Shown one piece after another: positions 2,821-12,156 of a DNA stretch of 14,132 bases. Every line of letters starts with the position of its first letter. Position 1 is the stretch's first letter. Source of the stretch: a virus (Duplodnaviria; Heunggongvirae; Uroviricota; Caudoviricetes); IMG/VR virus record IMGVR_UViG_2534682295_000006; one strand, given 5' to 3'. The notes under the pieces were generated by a model. The model saw only the letters and a list, made by a program, of their open reading frames with translations. It was not told where the DNA came from and ran no database searches. The position numbers were made by a program, and so were the translations under genes.

Positions 2821-3630
2821 TTATTCCTCTGAATTATCGATTACACTGTATTCCCCGGTTAATACAGAGGAATCTGCAGGATCGATTGTCAGTGGTTCCT
2901 TTTCATCCATTGATACTGCACGCTGGATCTCAATTGATACGGGCAGATATTTGAACAGGCGACGAATAGCCGTTTTCTTTGCCATTTCTTCCCAGTGAGT
3001 TACCCACGGCCCGTTATTACCAGCTTTACTCTGGCTGCGCACCAGCTCAATCTGTTTGCGCGTCATAACTTCAAACTGAGTACCTCCGTCTTTCAGTCTT
3101 GCGACAGCATAGACGTGGGTAACAGGGGCATCTTCGTTTTCTCCTGGGCGGTGTATTAACTTTTCATCAAGGCCAAATTCGAAATTAAACTCGTCACCTT
3201 CACGGACAACACGGGCTGACAAGCTGGCGATTTGACCTGAACGGCGAGCCAGATCAATCATGCCTCGATAGCCAATGATTAGCTGAACGTTTTTTTTACC
3301 GCTCTTTTCGTTTTTATTACCAAAAGGCAGTAAATATGCATGACCGAGGGCGCTACCGGGCTCAAGTCCGAGCTGTGAACACTGTACGATTGCACTGACA
3401 AAACTCATAGTGTCACAGTTTCCTAACGCCGGAACTTTACGAATTTCTGTGGTGGCGATACGGATCATACGTTCAGCCGTCATATGGCGTGGAAGAGCTG
3501 CTGCCAGTTGCTCTTTCATTGATGGCTGGTTAATAAAACTAATCACGTCGTTATTTTTAATTGCTGCTGGTGCACGGTTTCCCTGAGTTTTTTGCAGATC
3601 GGCTTTTGCGATTGGTGGTTGCTTAGTCAT
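2821..3630 (-). CDS. recT: RecT single-strand annealing protein, 269 aa from ATG at 3630; the track ORF starts 19 codons upstream
   Basis: Translation from [29 protein letters not shown] matches recalled K-12 RecT. Its start overlaps the recE 3' end by 8 nt. Confidence 0.93.
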
Positions 3631-6223
3631 TTGCATATTCCTTAGCCCAGCGGGGCAGTGATAACGTCTTAATAGCTGGCCATTCATCGGTATTGAGGCA
3701 GTCAGCCAGGGTTCGCAGATTGCGGTGATATTCCAGCTGACCTGCCAGTTTTGCTTCTTCGCCCATCATGAAAATTTCAACCGGATAACGTCCGCATTCA
3801 ATAGTTGTGCTGGCAACCAGAAAAACGAAAGTTGGCTGCACTCCAAACTGTGCTTCATAACCGTCACTGTAGAATGCATCCTGAACGTGATAGCGGTAGT
3901 CGTAATAAGCGGTTTTGAATCGTTGAATATCCGCCGTAGTTTTCACGTCCATGATCCAGTGAAATTCAGGGATAATTTTGTCCGGACGGCACCGACACAA
4001 AATTGCTGTTTCAGGATCTTCCCAGTAAATTGATGATTCAGCGTGTCCGGCGCTTTCAACAAGCCATTGCCCCAGCGGCAAAGCCATAACGCTCTGATAC
4101 ATGAGTTCAATTTTCCGGCCTTCTTCGGCAGTGATAACCGTTTTTCCTGTGCTTGCGCATTCCCTCAGAAACGCTTTCTCTTCTTCTTTTCCGGAGTTTG
4201 TCCGGCGGTTAAATTCAGGTGCTACGATAAAGCGGTTACTGAATTCTTCCGGCTCAAGTACCCGGCAGTGGAAAGCGGTTCCTAAATCGAGCGTTTTTGT
4301 CTTTGTGGTGTCCACGGGGGCATTTTTACGCCACAAATACAGTGCCGGAGTATCAGCAATGTCATCGAGCTGAGACTTACTGACACCGGGACCCGCGTGG
4401 TAATTCTCATTCGAAATTCCGTAATAAATACCTGGCTCTATGTCTTCTACGATTACGGGATCTGCGACTTCGCCAGTTTCATCACTGCAATCGCGATGCG
4501 GATCGCTGCCAGCATTCTCATTGTGCGGATGTTCAGCGCCTTCCATTTCCTCCGGATCATTTTCCTTAGCTTCAACCTGACTCTCTTCATCGAATGTTTC
4601 CTGGTATGTTGCGTCGCCCATCACCGCACCACAGTCAGGGCAGTTATCCCCGCCAGTCTGGCCGCAGGCATTGCAGGCTATTTCCGGTTCCTGTTGCACT
4701 ACTGGCTCAGGTTGATTCATATCCGGGCTGGTTTTTTCCGTTTCTGGCTGGTTCTGGTACACACAATCGCGAGTCTGGATCCCCTTTACCCATTTCGGAT
4801 CGTTCGGGTCGCTAATTCCGTCAACAAATTCACCACGTGATGCAGCAAGCAATTTATCGGCATCGACAGGATTTTTTGATGGAATGTTTTTCCGGGCTTC
4901 ATGGAGTTCTGCCCGCAGTTCCTGATATTTCGCATCAACAGAATTTACCTGTGACTGAGCATCCAGCGGCTGCGTGTCCTGATGATGTTCAGTTGCGTCC
5001 GGTTCCATTGTTTCAGCCTCTCCCTGTTCAACTGCCGTTGTTCCAGATGGTTGCGGTTTTTCTTCATCATCCTGTTTTCCTTCTTCTGTTACTCGCTGCG
5101 GCATCGGGGCAGAGGAGCGACCGCAGGCAATATCCACGATTTCCGGATCAGGGTTGGCATGATCGGTTTCAGTCAGTACTTTGTTCAGATATTCAGTGAC
5201 GTGCGCGGGGATGACCTCGATCCCAATTGGTGCTTCTTTTACGGACGCAACCACGATGGCGCGGGAATAATCCAGCCCGCCAGGCATGGTGATGAATTTG
5301 TCGCGGAAAACAGAAAAGGGCGGTTTATTTTCAGCGATAATTTCCTCAATGCGTTTAGCGTGTGCCGGATGAAGGTTATAGATGTCCAGATCCATTGAAC
5401 GGGCCAGTACGCCAGTGGCTACGTCGCGCGCCAGTGACGTCAGATCGTGTACGAAACCTTCGCCGCGATCGGTGAGGTTTCCGCCGCCAGCATTAGCACC
5501 GGAAGCCGTGCGAGTGATGTGTGAAACACGATTACCCTTCATCCACTCTTTTGTCAGCAGTCCTCGATCGGTGTAGTCAGCGTTCAGGTATGCTTCGAAA
5601 AAAGCAGTTATCAGTCCCAGGTTTGAATTACCAGGATTAGGGAAAACTTTGTCAGTGTCACGAACCAGTTTGTGGAGTTCGCGAATTTCCAGCGGGTCGA
5701 GCAGGCTGGTTTTGTGGGAAACAGCCAGGGCAGTAACAGCCGGTAGTTCTTCAGCCCGAGCAATGTGTAATGCCTGGAGTCCGTCGCGTGAAACGTGCGT
5801 TACCGGTTTTTCGCTGCCGTGTTGAGCAAGCCAACGAATGGGCAGTTCCTGGCCAGAAATTGGGAGTAGCATATTCTCCTCAATCTCAGTCATGTCTTCG
5901 CCGTTGACGTTGGTATTGCCTTGATAGTGAGCGTTGTCTGGTGCTGCTCCCGGTTTTAGTTCCCATGTCATGGAGTCTTTGCTGAGTTGATAGCGTTCAC
6001 TCCAGGTAAAATCGATCTCACCTTCAGCGGGCAGGTCATTAACGACAGGAAAATTCGTGGCAACAGCTTTAAAATAGCTGCTCAGTTTTTTACCTGACTT
6101 AACGATCAGGTAGTCCAGAGTGGCACAGGTCGATTCAAAATCGTTGCTTGCCCACAGGACGACGTCAGGTTCACCGGATGATTTTTTCGCTTTCCGTAAC
6201 AGGAAGAGTGGTTTTGTGCTCAT
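3623..6223 (-). CDS. recE: RecE exonuclease VIII, 866 aa
   Basis: Track ORF of 866 aa; N-terminus [32 protein letters not shown] and length match recalled K-12 RecE. Immediately upstream of recT. Confidence 0.93.
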
Positions 6224-8580: not shown

Positions 8581-9000
8581 TTAAGAGGCTTTTTGTTTTT
8601 TCTTTCGTGCTAACTCTTCGTAAATTGCATTGTACTTCTGTTTTTTCTCCTCAAGAGTTTTTAAAAGTTCATCTGTCTCACTGTCAGGGAGCTCGTCCAG
8701 AAGGTCAATGATGATTTTTTGTCTTGGATTTAACTCCTGATAGAAACGTATCTGTCCACTTTCTTCTGTATCCTCTCCCAAAAGATAGGTTGGTGTTGTT
8801 CCAATGAGTGTTGCTAATTCCCTTAATTTCTCTCGGCGAGGAATTGTTTCACCATTAAACCATTTGCTAACCGCTTTTGGTGTTAATTTCATTCGACGGG
8901 CAATTTCTGCCTGCCTTCCATGTTGTTCATAACCAGCGTTTTCACAGGCTAGCGCAAGCCTACTGGCGAACTCTTTACGCGCTTTATCTTCATGAACCAT
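8581..9000 (-). CDS. racR: Rac prophage repressor RacR, XRE-family HTH regulator, 139-aa ORF
   Basis: Track ORF. HTH-like segment GRQAEIARRMKLTPKAVSKWFNGETIPRREKLRELATLIG. Divergent from ydaS-ydaT. Confidence 0.88.
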   Translation of the reverse strand: MVHEDKARKEFASRLALACENAGYEQHGRQAEIARRMKLTPKAVSKWFNGETIPRREKLRELATLIGTTPTYLLGEDTEESGQIRFYQELNPRQKIIIDLLDELPDSETDELLKTLEEKKQKYNAIYEELARKKKQKAS

Positions 9001-9079
9001 AAGTTCAATGATATTCGCTCTTGAATGTACTGTCAGTTCTGTTATAGCATGTACTCAAAGTTCACATTGTGAGGGTGAT
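9001..9079. promoter_or_regulatory. Divergent racR / ydaS promoter-operator region
   Basis: Two direct copies of ATGTACT (9025-9031, 9049-9055) flank a plus-strand promoter candidate: -35 TTGAAT 9021-9026, -10 TATAGC 9043-9048. GAGGGTGAT Shine-Dalgarno precedes the ydaS ATG at 9080. Confidence 0.5.
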
Positions 9080-9334
9080 ATGAACCAGAAAACACTTGAA
9101 GATGTAATCAAAACTGTTCGCGTTTCTGTTGTGGCCGACGTTTGTGGTGTCAGCCAAAGAGCAATCTACAAATGGATGGATAACGGTAAATTGCCTCGCA
9201 CAGAATATACCGGCGAAACAAATTACGCTGAAAAAATCGCTCATGCATCAAACGGATTATTTTCTGCCGATGCAATTTTAACTATTGGCAGAAATAAAAC
9301 TACTACGAAAAAGCTGATGGGAGTTGATTCATGA
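9080..9334 (+). CDS. ydaS: YdaS, Cro-like HTH protein, 84 aa from ATG at 9080; the track ORF starts at 9008
   Basis: Strong Shine-Dalgarno GAGGG before ATG 9080. Using 9008 would leave only 7 bp between the divergent genes. Stop overlaps the ydaT start (ATGA). Confidence 0.82.
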   Translation: MNQKTLEDVIKTVRVSVVADVCGVSQRAIYKWMDNGKLPRTEYTGETNYAEKIAHASNGLFSADAILTIGRNKTTTKKLMGVDS

Positions 9335-9753
9335 AAATCAAGCATGAGCACATCGAATCAGTGTTGTTAGCCCTGGCAGCCGAAAAAGGGCAGGCGTGGG
9401 TCGCTAACGCAATTACTGAAGAATATCTGCGCCAGGGGGGCGGCGAATTGCCCCTGGTACCAGGCAAGGACTGGAACAATCAGCAGAATATCTATCATCG
9501 TTGGTTGAAAGGTGAAACGAATGCGCAAAGGGAAAAAATTCAGAAACTGATCCCTGCGGTTCTGGCAATTCTTCCTCGCGAGCTGCGTCACCGACTCTGC
9601 ATCTTCGATACCCTGGAACGCCGTGCATTACTGGCGGCACAGGATGCACTGAGTACGGCAATTGATGCGCATGATGATGCAGTCCAGGCCGTTTACCGTA
9701 AAGCACATTTCAGCGGCGGCGGTTCTCCTAGCGATTCTGTCGTAGTGCATTGA
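9331..9753 (+). CDS. ydaT: YdaT, Rac prophage toxic protein, 140 aa
   Basis: Track ORF of 140 aa starting MKIKHEHIESVLLALAAEKGQ, matching recalled YdaT length. Translationally coupled to ydaS. Confidence 0.88.
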   Translation: MKIKHEHIESVLLALAAEKGQAWVANAITEEYLRQGGGELPLVPGKDWNNQQNIYHRWLKGETNAQREKIQKLIPAVLAILPRELRHRLCIFDTLERRALLAAQDALSTAIDAHDDAVQAVYRKAHFSGGGSPSDSVVVH

Positions 9754-9766
9754 TTGAAATTAATCG

Positions 9767-9788
9767 TACCGAACTGTTTTGTTCGGTA
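9767..9788 (+). other. Stem-loop TACCGAAC-TGTTTT-GTTCGGTA after the ydaT stop
   Basis: Perfect 8-bp inverted repeat with 6-nt loop read directly. Sits 14 nt after the ydaT stop and just upstream of the first GTAACGC dyad. Confidence 0.3.
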
Positions 9789-9798
9789 TCAGTTAAAT

Positions 9799-9817
9799 GT
9801 AACGCTGCGAGCGTTAC
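9799..9817. repeat. Dyad repeat 1, GTAACGCT-GCG-AGCGTTAC, just upstream of the ydaU start
   Basis: 19-bp element with perfect 8-bp arms read directly. Same core as the two copies inside ydaU. Confidence 0.6.
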
Positions 9818-9830
9818 AAGGTGAAAACAA

Positions 9831-10619
9831 ATGGCTTCAAACTGGATAAAGCTCGAAGTTATTACGCCGGATAAGCCGGAAATATTCAGGCTTGCTGAGA
9901 TTCTGAATATTGATCCAGATGCCGCATTAGGGAAAGTCATTCGCTTCTGGGCATGGGCGGATCAACAAATGATAGACGGTAACGCAGAGTGTAACGCTCG
10001 CGGCGTTACAAAAAGTGCAATAGATCGCATCACTTTTATGGCTGGTTTTGCTGATGCGTTAATTCAGGTTGGATGGCTGGTCGAAACTAATGGTGTGTTG
10101 TCGCTTCCTAACTTTGAGCGCCATAACGGGAAAAGCTCTAAAAAACGGGCGGTTACAAACGAGAGAGTAACAAAAATACGAGAACTGAAACGAAAAGGTA
10201 ACGCTGCCAGCGTTACAAAAACGGATCAAAAAGCGTTACCAGAGGAAGAGAAAGAGGAAGATATAAATACTTATCTCCCCCTAAATCCCCCTCGCCAAAA
10301 ACGAGCGTCTAAAAAATTCGAACCGGAGGCTATCGAGCTGCCTGACTGGTTGCCGGAAACACTCTGGCATGAGTGGGTTCAGTTCAGGCAGGCATTGCGA
10401 AAACCGATTCGAACGGAGCAGGGCGCTAACGGGGCGATACGGGAGCTGGAAAAATTCCGCCAGCAGGGTTTTTCACCTGAGCAGGTGATTCGACACAGCA
10501 TCGCCAATGAATACCAGGGCTTGTTCGCGCCGAAAGGTGTTCGGCCAGAGACGTTGCTCCGACAGATTAACACCGTCTCGTTTCCGGACAGTGCGATCCC
10601 GCCAGGCTTCAGGGGGTAA
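9831..10619 (+). CDS. ydaU: YdaU, putative lambda O-like replication initiator, 262 aa
   Basis: Track ORF; an in-frame stop sits 2 codons upstream of the ATG. Directly upstream of the DnaC-like ydaV. Contains dyad repeats and an AT-rich linker. Confidence 0.85.
   Translation: MASNWIKLEVITPDKPEIFRLAEILNIDPDAALGKVIRFWAWADQQMIDGNAECNARGVTKSAIDRITFMAGFADALIQVGWLVETNGVLSLPNFERHNGKSSKKRAVTNERVTKIRELKRKGNAASVTKTDQKALPEEEKEEDINTYLPLNPPRQKRASKKFEPEAIELPDWLPETLWHEWVQFRQALRKPIRTEQGANGAIRELEKFRQQGFSPEQVIRHSIANEYQGLFAPKGVRPETLLRQINTVSFPDSAIPPGFRG
9991..10009. repeat. Dyad repeat 2, GTAACGC-TCGCG-GCGTTAC, inside ydaU, with an extra half-site GGTAACGC at 9978-9985
   Basis: Read directly. Encodes the NARGVTK peptide segment. 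Confidence 0.6.
10198..10216. repeat. Dyad repeat 3, GTAACGCTG-C-CAGCGTTAC, inside ydaU
   Basis: Perfect 9-bp arms read directly. Further half-sites at 10151-10157 (GGTTAC), 10167-10172 (GTAACA) and 10233-10239 (GCGTTAC). Confidence 0.6.
10241..10290. other. 20-nt all-purine tract, then an AT-rich segment and two C5 runs; candidate DNA-unwinding element of the origin
   Basis: AGAGGAAGAGAAAGAGGAAG (10241-10260), ATATAAATACTTATCT (10261-10276), CCCCCTAAATCCCCCT. Lies immediately after the dyad cluster, as in lambda ori. Confidence 0.45.
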
Positions 10620-10625
10620 CAGACC

Positions 10626-11372
10626 ATGAAAAATATTGCGACAGGCGGCGTTCTGGAACGTATCCGCAGACTGGCCCCGCCACATGTAACCGCGCCATTC
10701 AGGACGGTGGCGGAGTGGCGCGAGTGGCAACTTGCAGAAGGCCAGAAACGTTGTGAGGAGATCAACCGTCAGAATCGTCAGTTGCGGGTGGAAAAAATCC
10801 TGAATCGCTCCGGCATACAGCCGTTGCACCGCAAATGCTCGTTTGCGAATTACCAGGTGCAGAACGACGGCCAGCGATACGCGTTGAGTCAGGCGAAATC
10901 TATCGCTGACGAACTGGTTACCGGATGCACAAATTTCGCGTTCAGCGGAAAACCTGGTACCGGAAAAAACCATCTGGCGGCGGCTATCGGGAATCGCCTG
11001 CTGAAAGATGGCCAGACAGTGATTGTGGTTACCGTGGCTGATGTTATGAGCGCCCTGCACGCCAGCTATGACGACGGGCAGTCAGGCGAAAAATTTTTGC
11101 GGGAACTGTGCGAAGTTGATCTGCTGGTTCTTGATGAAATTGGTATTCAGCGCGAGACGAAAAACGAGCAGGTGGTACTGCACCAGATTGTTGATCGCCG
11201 GACAGCGTCAATGCGCAGCGTGGGGATGCTGACAAACCTGAACTATGAGGCCATGAAAACATTGCTCGGCGAGCGGATTATGGATCGCATGACCATGAAC
11301 GGCGGGCGCTGGGTGAATTTTAACTGGGAGAGCTGGCGCCCGAATGTTGGTCAGCCAGGTATTGAGAAGTAA
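10626..11372 (+). CDS. ydaV: YdaV, DnaC/IstB-like AAA+ helicase loader, 248 aa
   Basis: Track ORF. Walker [11 protein letters not shown] and Walker B LLVLDEIG. Length matches recalled YdaV. Confidence 0.9.
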
Positions 11373-11394
11373 TTTTTACCGGGAGGAAATTTTA

Positions 11395-12156
11395 ATGGAG
11401 ACCGTTTTTGACGCACTGAAAGCGATGGGAAAAGCCACGTCGGTAGAACTGGCTACGCGACTTGATATCAGTCGAGAAGAAGTGCTGAACGAGCTGTGGG
11501 AACTGAAAAAGGCTGGCTTCGTTGATAAAAGCGTATACACCTGGCGCGTGGCTGATAACAACGTTCAGCAGGAACAGCCAGCGCCGGCAGAGCTGCCGGA
11601 AGAAACCACCATGGCAACAGTAGCGAAAATCTCAGAGTGCGATTTAACCGCGACGATTGAACAACGTGGCCCACAAACGGCGGATGAGTTGGCTACATTG
11701 TTCGGTACCACATCACGCAAAGTAGCTTCAACGCTGGCAATGGCTATCAGCAAAGGACGCCTGATTCGCGTAAACCAGAACGGTAAATTTCGTTACTGCA
11801 TACCGGGCGATAATTTACCAGCAGAGCCGAAAGCAGCATCGGTAGCGGAAACTGATGGTAAGGCCTTTCCTCAGCCCACAGGTGTTGCGTTACCAGTACA
11901 GGAGGCTGCAACACAGGAAGATATTAAAACAGAAACGGTGGCGGACATTGTGCAGTCGCTGCCATCGTTTACTGAAACGCGAGCGGATGACCTGGTTTTA
12001 CCATCGCTGCATATGGCAAACCGCGAACTGCGTCGGGCGAAAAATCATGTCCAGAAGTGGGAGCGAGTCTGCGCCGCGCTGCGGGAGCTGAACAAGCACC
12101 GGGATATTGTTCGACAGATTTTCGATTCCTCCAGTCGTATTGTGTCGGAAAAGTGA
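11395..12156 (+). CDS. ydaW: YdaW-like protein with two tandem winged-helix-like segments, apparently full length at 253 aa
   Basis: Shine-Dalgarno GGGAGG 11381-11386 precedes ATG 11395. The track ORF starts at 11344, inside ydaV. K-12 ydaW is a truncated pseudogene as I recall. Confidence 0.75.

Follow-up and report, generated by a model that had tools for sequence, protein, structure and literature searches.

A region inside and just 5' of a replication initiator gene of a Rac-like Escherichia coli prophage is probably the origin of replication of that prophage. The prophage is carried on a stretch of 14,132 nucleotides (nt), called the window below (IMG/VR record IMGVR_UViG_2534682295_000006). 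The region holds three copies of the dyad GTAACGC-N5-GCGTTAC, auxiliary half-sites, and a purine tract followed by an AT patch. An origin core of this kind, with sites and an unwinding element within the initiator gene and 5' of a gene for a DnaC-like helicase loader, is the best-supported explanation of the patterns described here. The sites covary within each locus and travel with the initiator gene beside genes for helicases or helicase loaders. They are under selection at the DNA level across phyla, most likely for binding by the encoded initiator.

From these patterns we infer the identity of the protein that reads the sites, the position of melting and the firing of the origin, and the mechanism that we envisage is the following. 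The winged-helix N-terminal domain (N-domain) of the 262-amino-acid (aa) initiator would bind the dyads as a dimer, and further protomers would spread to the auxiliary half-sites, which are phased at 11-12 base pairs (bp). The cluster around the last dyad (10198-10239) adjoins the purine tract and AT patch (10241-10276), and the duplex would open there. The YdaU-type C-terminal domain (C-domain) would recruit the DnaC-like loader YdaV together with the host DnaB helicase; across the initiator family, a variable C-domain would recruit whichever loader or helicase the module encodes. The other two dyads may be additional origin sites, autoregulatory sites, or both. The features of the region, in window coordinates, are as follows.

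9752 to about 10245, + strand: specificity cassette, made up of the spacer, the N-domain coding part and the dyads, flanked by a Rac-like ydaT and the YdaU-type C-terminal part
9799-9817, unstranded: dyad 0, GTAACGCTGCGAGCGTTAC, read as GTAACGCT-GCG-AGCGTTAC; non-coding, 14 nt 5' of the ATG
9831-10619, + strand: replication initiator gene, 262 aa, with winged-helix N-domain, basic helix, disordered acidic linker and YdaU-type C-domain (domains as predicted)
9831-10115, + strand: part coding for the predicted N-terminal winged-helix domain (aa 1-95), the presumed DNA-binding module for the dyads
9979-9985, + strand: auxiliary left half-site GTAACGC, at -12 of dyad 1, arising from a 12-bp tandem duplication
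9991-10009, unstranded: dyad 1, GTAACGCTCGCGGCGTTAC, read as GTAACGC-TCGCG-GCGTTAC; encodes C-N-A-R-G-V-T
10198-10216, unstranded: dyad 2, GTAACGCTGCCAGCGTTAC, read as GTAACGCTG-C-CAGCGTTAC; in the linker-coding part, nearest the candidate unwinding element
10233-10239, - strand: auxiliary right half-site; the + strand reads GCGTTAC, and the distance to the left edge of dyad 2 is 35 bp
10241-10261, + strand: homopurine tract of 21 nt, AGAGGAAGAGAAAGAGGAAGA, encoding EEEKEED; the local version of a (GAGAA)n tract
10245-10619, + strand: part coding for the C-terminal YdaU-type domain (aa 139-262), the presumed loader contact
10262-10276, unstranded: AT patch, TATAAATACTTATCT, 15 nt, 87% AT; with the purine tract, the candidate DNA-unwinding element
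10277-10291, unstranded: C-rich element, CCCCCTAAATCCCCC, in common with K-12 ydaU (CCCCCCCTAAATCCCCCC, L002 3956-3973); right junction of the cassette
10626-11372, + strand: ydaV, DnaC/IstB-like helicase loader (Pfam IstB_IS21, 2e-20; PHROG 50 'DnaC-like helicase loader', 1e-85)

Dyads, half-sites and the candidate unwinding element

The three 19-bp dyads had been listed in an initial annotation made from the sequence alone, and all of them are exact, with arms of 7-9 bp; the extra half-sites that it mentioned are also present, at 9979-9985 and 10233-10239. When up to three mismatches are allowed, the dyad pattern has 4 matches in the window against 0.43 expected, a number reached in none of 200 dinucleotide-preserving shuffles. 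The GTAACGC heptamer is similarly concentrated: eight of its ten occurrences in the 14-kb window fall within 441 bp (9799-10239), with 1.44 expected window-wide. The remaining two, at 5797 and 11887, are isolated half-sites outside the module and not dyads.

The dyads are spaced at 192 and 207 bp from start to start and form no tandem array. Dyad 0 lies in the 77-bp spacer 3' of the ydaT stop codon, with its end two bases 5' of the Shine-Dalgarno sequence AGGTGA. Since the open reading frame (ORF) starts at 9831, dyad 0 is non-coding, and it is a candidate for an extra initiator site or an autoregulatory operator. The placement of all repeats inside the gene in the initial annotation was thus incorrect for dyad 0. 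The ORF (9831-10619) does contain the other two dyads (1 and 2), as well as the half-site at 10233 and the purine/AT tract. The further claim that the repeats encode the linker between two initiator domains holds for dyad 2, the only dyad in the linker-coding part, and for the purine/AT tract that accompanies it, but not for dyad 1, which codes for the N-domain loop between helices 2 and 3 (the conserved G-N-A-x-S-V-T loop), nor for non-coding dyad 0. The recurring peptide segments CNARGVTK, RAVTNERVTK and NAASVTKT are present in the protein as had been described. A 12-bp tandem duplication (9974-9985 and 9986-9997; AGACGGTAACGC and AGAGTGTAACGC) gives the window protein four more amino acids, and the DNA one more left half-site, than most homologues have.

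Among 46 distinct alleles from E. coli and Shigella, variation is found in 4 of 42 arm columns, all as rare variants, versus 9 of 15 spacer columns (p = 2.4e-4). Dyad 0 itself has nearly invariant arms and a variable spacer.

The purine tract is real, but it measures 21 nt and not the 20 nt first given. It is the longest homopurine or homopyrimidine run of the window and directly follows the last half-site, where the window reads GCGTTAC-C-AGAGGAAGAGAAAGAGGAAGA. Within E. coli the tract is polymorphic in length at 10240-10251, through gain or loss of 6-bp AGAGGA units that changes the number of Glu residues in the linker. The AT-rich stretch that had been assigned to 10241-10290 does coincide with the least stable duplex of the module, but it is modest, consisting of the 15-nt patch within 60 nt (10230-10289) of GC content 0.40. 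By nearest-neighbour stability, the 20-mer from 10257 and the 30-mer from 10246 are the least stable in 9000-11400. Within the replication module, no duplex of 20-30 bp is less stable than 10246-10277, which belongs to the top 0.2-0.5% of the window.

The initiator family and its loci across phyla

The initiator matches PHROG 2509 ('replication initiation protein') over its full length (3e-88), and the NCBI Prokaryotic Genome Annotation Pipeline (PGAP) labels its gene 'hypothetical protein'. An AlphaFold2 model built on 19 homologues predicts a winged-helix fold for the N-domain, with helices at residues 16-25, 29-46, 61-68 and 73-80, a hairpin at 84-91, and predicted local distance difference test (pLDDT) values of 88-96 over most of aa 11-90. 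It then predicts a basic helix (103-121), an acidic linker that is disordered (123-165) and a C-domain of helices. Compact structural matches to the N-domain were best for the winged-helix domains of CRP/FNR and MCM proteins, and the viral structure neighbours of the initiator include a 'replisome organizer' and a 'primosomal protein'. No model in Pfam-A (E up to 10) or NCBIfam matches the N-domain, and a family profile search of PDB sequences gave no match. The protein also matches PHROG 6451 ('primosomal protein') and, over aa 76-236, PHROG 678 ('O-like'). In homologues the YdaU-type C-domain is swapped for a DnaT-like domain (PF17948/NF002770) or for others. The N-domain family is large, with 6,437 representatives at 50% clustering, of which 3,980 are below 1e-10. 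Its members are called 'replication protein O', 'primosomal protein I', 'replication initiation protein' or 'hypothetical protein' in phage records, and these phage annotations carry no origin features.

A family-alignment scan with one genome per species yielded 71 loci (31-93% identity), and dyads were counted in 67 distinct divergent loci (31-72% amino acid identity). The loci come from Enterobacterales, Pseudomonas, Burkholderiales, Planctomycetota, Verrucomicrobiota and others; they are phylogenetically related, and the locus counts given below do not stand for independent events. The homologous N-domains share a PNF(E/D)RHNG motif, which the window protein also has. Both dyads are present in 39 of the 67 loci, one dyad in 10 and none in 18, and positions +50 to +450 of the gene have an 83-fold higher dyad density than the remainder of the loci. 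The two dyads within the window gene, at +160 and +367, are both of the GTAACGC type.

Site 1 falls at +136 to +160 in 45 loci, always in one frame and encoding G-N-A-x-S-V-T. Site 2, present in 48 loci at +328 to +391, is found in any of the three frames: frame 1 in 30 loci (encoding xNAxSVT), frame 0 in 11 (VTxxALxK) and frame 2 in 7 (SRxxRD). The same DNA is thus used at site 2 in three frames that give unrelated peptides, which excludes a repeat driven by the peptide. At site 1, the synonymous positions are fixed as well. The Gly codon is GGT in 29 of 29 cases (23% in background use), the Asn codon AAC in 34 of 34 (64%) and the Val codon GTT in 34 of 34 (33%), in genes that are 33-70% identical and long saturated at synonymous sites.

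Both dyads of each locus carry one half-site variant, which is mostly GTAACGC. The GTCACGC variant is found in 8 loci, and wherever site 1 is present in these, the Asn of the loop is replaced by His and the Val codon GTT by its synonym GTG; the proteins with this C-type variant represent at least two or three different backgrounds. The variants GTTGCGC, CTAACGC and GTTACGC are each found in single loci. This covariation of half-sites within loci points to a reader encoded by the locus itself.

The auxiliary half-sites are convergent and phased around the dyads at intervals of 11-12 bp. Left of a dyad they stand at -12, -24 and -35, and right of it at +23/24, +35 and +45; 38 of 43 loci have a half-site in '-' orientation at +23/24 or +35. 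A copy of the dyad upstream of the gene (-32 to -44) is confined to loci of Enterobacterales (the window, WIN, and loci L003, L005, L006, L008 and L010). In nearly all loci, the last half-site is followed by GCGTTACC(A/T)AGAGAAGAGAAGAGAAG..., a (GAGAA)n homopurine tract and a short AT patch. Purine content over 24 nt is 0.88-1.0 in most loci and 0.75 at its lowest, in genomes of 44-68% GC. The Arg codons of the tract are AGA, a rare codon, in 77 of 91 cases (85%), versus 40 of 785 (5%) elsewhere in the same genes. A 5-nt repeat gives one peptide in every frame, and therefore the tract fits any frame.

The gene 3' of the initiator gene encodes, depending on the locus, a DnaC-like loader, a loader of the lambda-P family (as in Shiga-toxin (Stx) phage TL-2011b), a DnaB-like helicase or a Toprim primase-helicase. 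The downstream partner thus varies, and the only constant companion gene of the sites is the initiator gene that contains them. The module is also found on a 41-kb circular phage-like replicon of Pusillimonas. Two matches in a plasmid database are phage-like circles of 41-52 kb, not minimal replicons, and therefore lend the origin reading slight support.

Salmonella phage epsilon15 encodes a homologue that is 32% identical, and its gene carries GTCCGC-N7-GCGGAC at +65 and +344. The gene in this locus (L154) has two arrays (3054-3100 and 3333-3380), made of GTCCGC, the dyad GTCCGC-N7-GCGGAC and GCGGAC at a half-site spacing of 11 bp. The left GTCCGC pair is found at both clusters and the distal GCGGAC is clear at the second only; (AGAGA)n and ATATTAAACCCC come after the second array. 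The initiator gene has no loader gene beside it and is followed by that for a RuvC resolvase. The epsilon15 record lists repressor and IHF sites and no origin.

We advance more tentatively, as an idea falling a little short of probable, that these loci represent a large and undescribed class of phage and prophage origins. In this class the initiator's site would lie within the codons for a loop of its own DNA-binding domain and be repeated about 200 bp downstream, beside a frame-independent (GAGAA)n unwinding tract. The loop G-N-A-x-S-V-T is written GGT AAC GCn nnn AGC GTT ACn. With the site inside the loop codons, protein sequence and site specificity are physically coupled, as in the change of Asn to His that goes with GTAACGC to GTCACGC at both sites. 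Between E. coli and Planctomycetota, hardly a letter of the cis-element has changed. Not every member of the family has this architecture, since 18 of the 67 loci have neither recognisable dyads nor, in a de novo k-mer search of these 18, clear alternative repeats.

If the origin reading is correct, a function and a precise cis-element would be assigned to a gene that NCBI labels 'hypothetical protein', and an origin would be defined for a widespread initiator family that includes those of Stx phage TL-2011b, Salmonella phage epsilon15, phages of Xanthomonas, Ralstonia and Pseudomonas, and prophages of Akkermansia and planctomycetes. The A-, C-, TG- and CTA-type half-sites would be natural specificity variants for studying how a winged-helix initiator reads DNA, and the loop would exemplify dual coding: its codons hold a DNA-binding site, which limits the sequence open to the protein that probably binds there. 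The signature of dyad plus tract could also be used for calling prophage origins and for building compatible mini-replicons.

Alternative readings of the dyads

Several observations weigh against an origin at this position. The dyads are about 200 bp apart and make up no compact iteron array, and in iteron plasmids inverted-repeat sites typically serve autorepression, not initiation. No DnaA box was found in 9700-10350 with up to one mismatch, and GATC is not enriched in the region. The AT patch, at 15 nt, is short. The half-site at 9979 is not conserved within E. coli, reading GTAATGC in 28 of the 46 alleles. As RNA, each dyad can form a hairpin (-11 to -16 kcal/mol, z -2.9 to -3.9). The 18 loci without recognisable dyads, mostly from Verrucomicrobiota, also count here, and a search of the accessible literature for the exact dyad sequences found no paper containing them. 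Other scans of the window gave just one weak IHF-like match, outside the region; promoter and terminator consensus matches not above shuffled expectation; and a chance-level Rfam match (E 0.78), again outside the region.

The spacing of the dyads, their position within a transcribed gene and the abutment of dyad 0 on the Shine-Dalgarno sequence would all suit operators. In that case the initiator or another prophage regulator would repress or roadblock transcription or translation of the gene, and the true origin would be elsewhere. Dimer-type inverted repeats are indeed the autorepression sites of the Rep proteins of iteron plasmids. We nevertheless consider it unlikely that the dyads are operators only. 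The conserved clusters are the two intragenic ones, whereas only Enterobacterales have the upstream dyad; the DNA-selected purine/AT tract, which an operator would not need, goes with site 2 without exception; and the phased half-site arrays suggest assembly of an oligomer. An operator role is possible for dyad 0, perhaps also for dyad 1, and a dual role as origin and operator is possible too.

Palindromic sites of 16-20 bp are typical of parS and of the targets of many regulators, and the dyads could accordingly be read by a different factor, whether a host protein or one of a mobile element, as a ParB-like centromere or partition site, a recombination site or a packaging signal. This strikes us as distinctly improbable. 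The sole constant companion gene of the sites is the initiator gene in which they lie, and the half-site variants switch between loci, even among related hosts, which makes a conserved host factor unlikely. The two GTAACGC copies outside the module are isolated half-sites, not dyads.

The hairpins that the dyads can form, together with symmetric arm changes that keep pairing, would fit stem-loops in the mRNA that act in stability, processing or translational pausing, with no DNA site involved. There is very little to recommend this reading, since it is the arm sequence itself, and not pairing alone, that is kept across phyla, with about five variants. Among mismatched arm pairs, just 5 of 59 are G.U-compatible on the sense strand, and the mismatches fall at arm positions 1 and 7 around a fixed core. 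One sequence is used at both sites of a locus, the auxiliary half-sites are phased by helical turns, and Rfam gave no match. Substitutions of the wobble type are found, by contrast, in a neighbouring hairpin at 9767-9788 (see below).

It is scarcely credible that the repeats are functionless in the DNA and arose as a by-product of the peptide motif NAxxVTK or of a recent duplication, as might be thought from the shared frame of all three window copies, two of which encode N-A-x-x-V-T-K, and from the 12-bp tandem duplication. This reading was rejected: the peptides that site 2 encodes in its three frames are unrelated, the synonymous codons of site 1 are fixed in genes 33-70% identical, dyad 0 is non-coding, and the A-to-C change in the half-site is accompanied by a compensatory T-to-G change.

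Relation to lambda, Rac and other replication modules

The phage lambda origin lies in the central part of gene O, with a 19-bp inverted-repeat iteron as the minimal O-binding unit; an AT-rich tract is required for unwinding, and P follows O (PMC7466680). The O/ori regions of lambdoid phages have a modular logic, in which N-domain and sites are swapped together as a cassette (PMC7466680). The initial annotation had described the window as having lambda ori architecture, and this holds for the sites in the initiator gene and the loader gene that comes next, and may hold for the unwinding region. In both systems, the origin (a probable one in the window) lies within the initiator gene and its sites are imperfect inverted repeats of about 19 bp, and N-domain and sites are exchanged as a cassette between related phages. 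The purine-biased and easily melted region just 3' of the last site has its candidate counterpart in the purine tract and AT patch of the window. In lambda it is the N-domain that recognises the sites and the C-terminal part that contacts the loader from the gene that follows; the same is presumed for the window. The tight array of 4-6 iterons does not carry over: the window has two or three clusters, at distances of about 200 bp, in which a dyad is accompanied by phased half-sites; one cluster lies in the part coding for the DNA-binding domain and one 5' of the gene. The candidate unwinding element of the window is a (GAGAA)n-type purine tract with a short AT patch, and its loader is DnaC/IstB-like, not lambda P. 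A relationship of the N-domain to lambda O, which had also been considered, was not borne out: the N-domain matches no Pfam family at E up to 10, and hence not the family of the lambda O N-terminal domain. Judged by these comparisons, the logic of the window element seems lambda-like, but the element does not belong to the lambda O/ori family.

The window is a Rac-like E. coli prophage, and not K-12 Rac. Positions 9300-11400 are 100% identical to strain E2863, and the allele is found in 678 of 5,426 complete E. coli genomes. The local gene order in E2863 is a repressor-like helix-turn-helix (HTH) gene, a cro-like HTH gene, ydaT, 'hypothetical protein', ydaV and a DUF1627 gene, and the Rac-type order (repressor, cro-like gene, ydaT, initiator, ydaV) is seen in the annotated E2863 and K-12-derivative regions. 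In blastn comparison with K-12 Rac, 9325-9751 is 92.8% identical, 10246-10291 80% and 10362-11400 94.4%, and 9752-10245 has no DNA homology. The homology thus ends at 9751, returns weakly at 10246 and returns in full at 10362. This break argues that the spacer, the N-domain coding part and all dyads were exchanged as one cassette.

The immunity region (8581-9334) is likewise unlike that of K-12. A minus-strand gene for a 139-aa HTH repressor-like protein, with a cro-like HTH gene (108 aa, or 84 aa by PGAP annotation), takes the place of racR and ydaS. At least two cassettes therefore separate the window prophage from K-12 Rac.

The initial annotation named the initiator gene ydaU. This is correct only for the C-terminal part: in a BLASTP comparison, aa 139-262 (124 aa) are 79% identical to aa 162-285 of K-12 YdaU, and the N-terminal 138 aa are unrelated to it. 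The N-domain of K-12 YdaU is DUF1376, with an hhalign probability of 0.2% against that of the window. The two modules otherwise share the slot between ydaT and ydaV, the C-domain, the loader and a C-rich element after the repeats. The identification of the next gene as that for the DnaC-like loader YdaV was confirmed by the Pfam and PHROG matches listed above.

In place of GTAACGC dyads, the linker-coding part of K-12 ydaU (L002 3834-3899) has three perfect copies of TGTTCAAACA in 66 bp, two direct and one inverted, plus degenerate copies. They lie just 5' of an A-rich stretch and CCCCCCCTAAATCCCCCC, and there is no other perfect copy in 8 kb. These repeats are the likely counterpart of the window dyads and are a candidate for the genetically defined origin oriJ, which the accessible literature mentions in passing only, as an active Rac origin. 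Whether the window element equals oriJ of K-12 had been left open initially. With no homology over the cassette, it is not the K-12 oriJ sequence, and only its position is equivalent.

The C-rich motif CCCCCTAAATCCCCC is kept between two otherwise unrelated cassettes, and CCCC...CCCC motifs follow the AT patch in the distant loci L005, L009, L021, L033 and L046. The motif may mark a junction left by recombination, or it may belong to the origin.

Other initiators offer partial parallels. Bacillus phage SPP1 has its oriL inside gene 38, and the winged-helix initiator G38P binds sites in its own gene, next to an AT-rich stretch. The window protein would likewise be of the replisome-organizer type, a winged-helix initiator (by its model) with sites in its own gene beside an AT-rich stretch. 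The sites differ, in that SPP1 uses direct repeats and the window inverted ones, and no similarity of the window initiator family to the SPP1 type was detected at the sequence level.

The initiator-ydaV pair mirrors the gene order dnaT-dnaC, many homologues have a DnaT-like C-domain, and 'primosomal protein I' is among the names given to them. The window protein itself matches DnaT over its last 19 residues only (E 0.004), and DnaT is not known to have sequence-specific origin sites. Origins of iteron plasmids have direct repeats of 17-22 bp and a DnaA box, and differ in both respects from the inverted repeats of the window with no DnaA box.

The intergenic hairpin at 9767-9788, TACCGAAC-N6-GTTCGGTA, lies between ydaT and the initiator gene and has an RNA minimum free energy of -12.9 kcal/mol (z -4.8), with no U-tract 3' of the stem. 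Among the 46 alleles, A>G substitutions are found at 9768 and 9772 in 38 and a C>T substitution at 9774 in 26. All three preserve G.U or U.G pairing, on the + strand only, and these wobble-preserving changes suggest a functional RNA stem.

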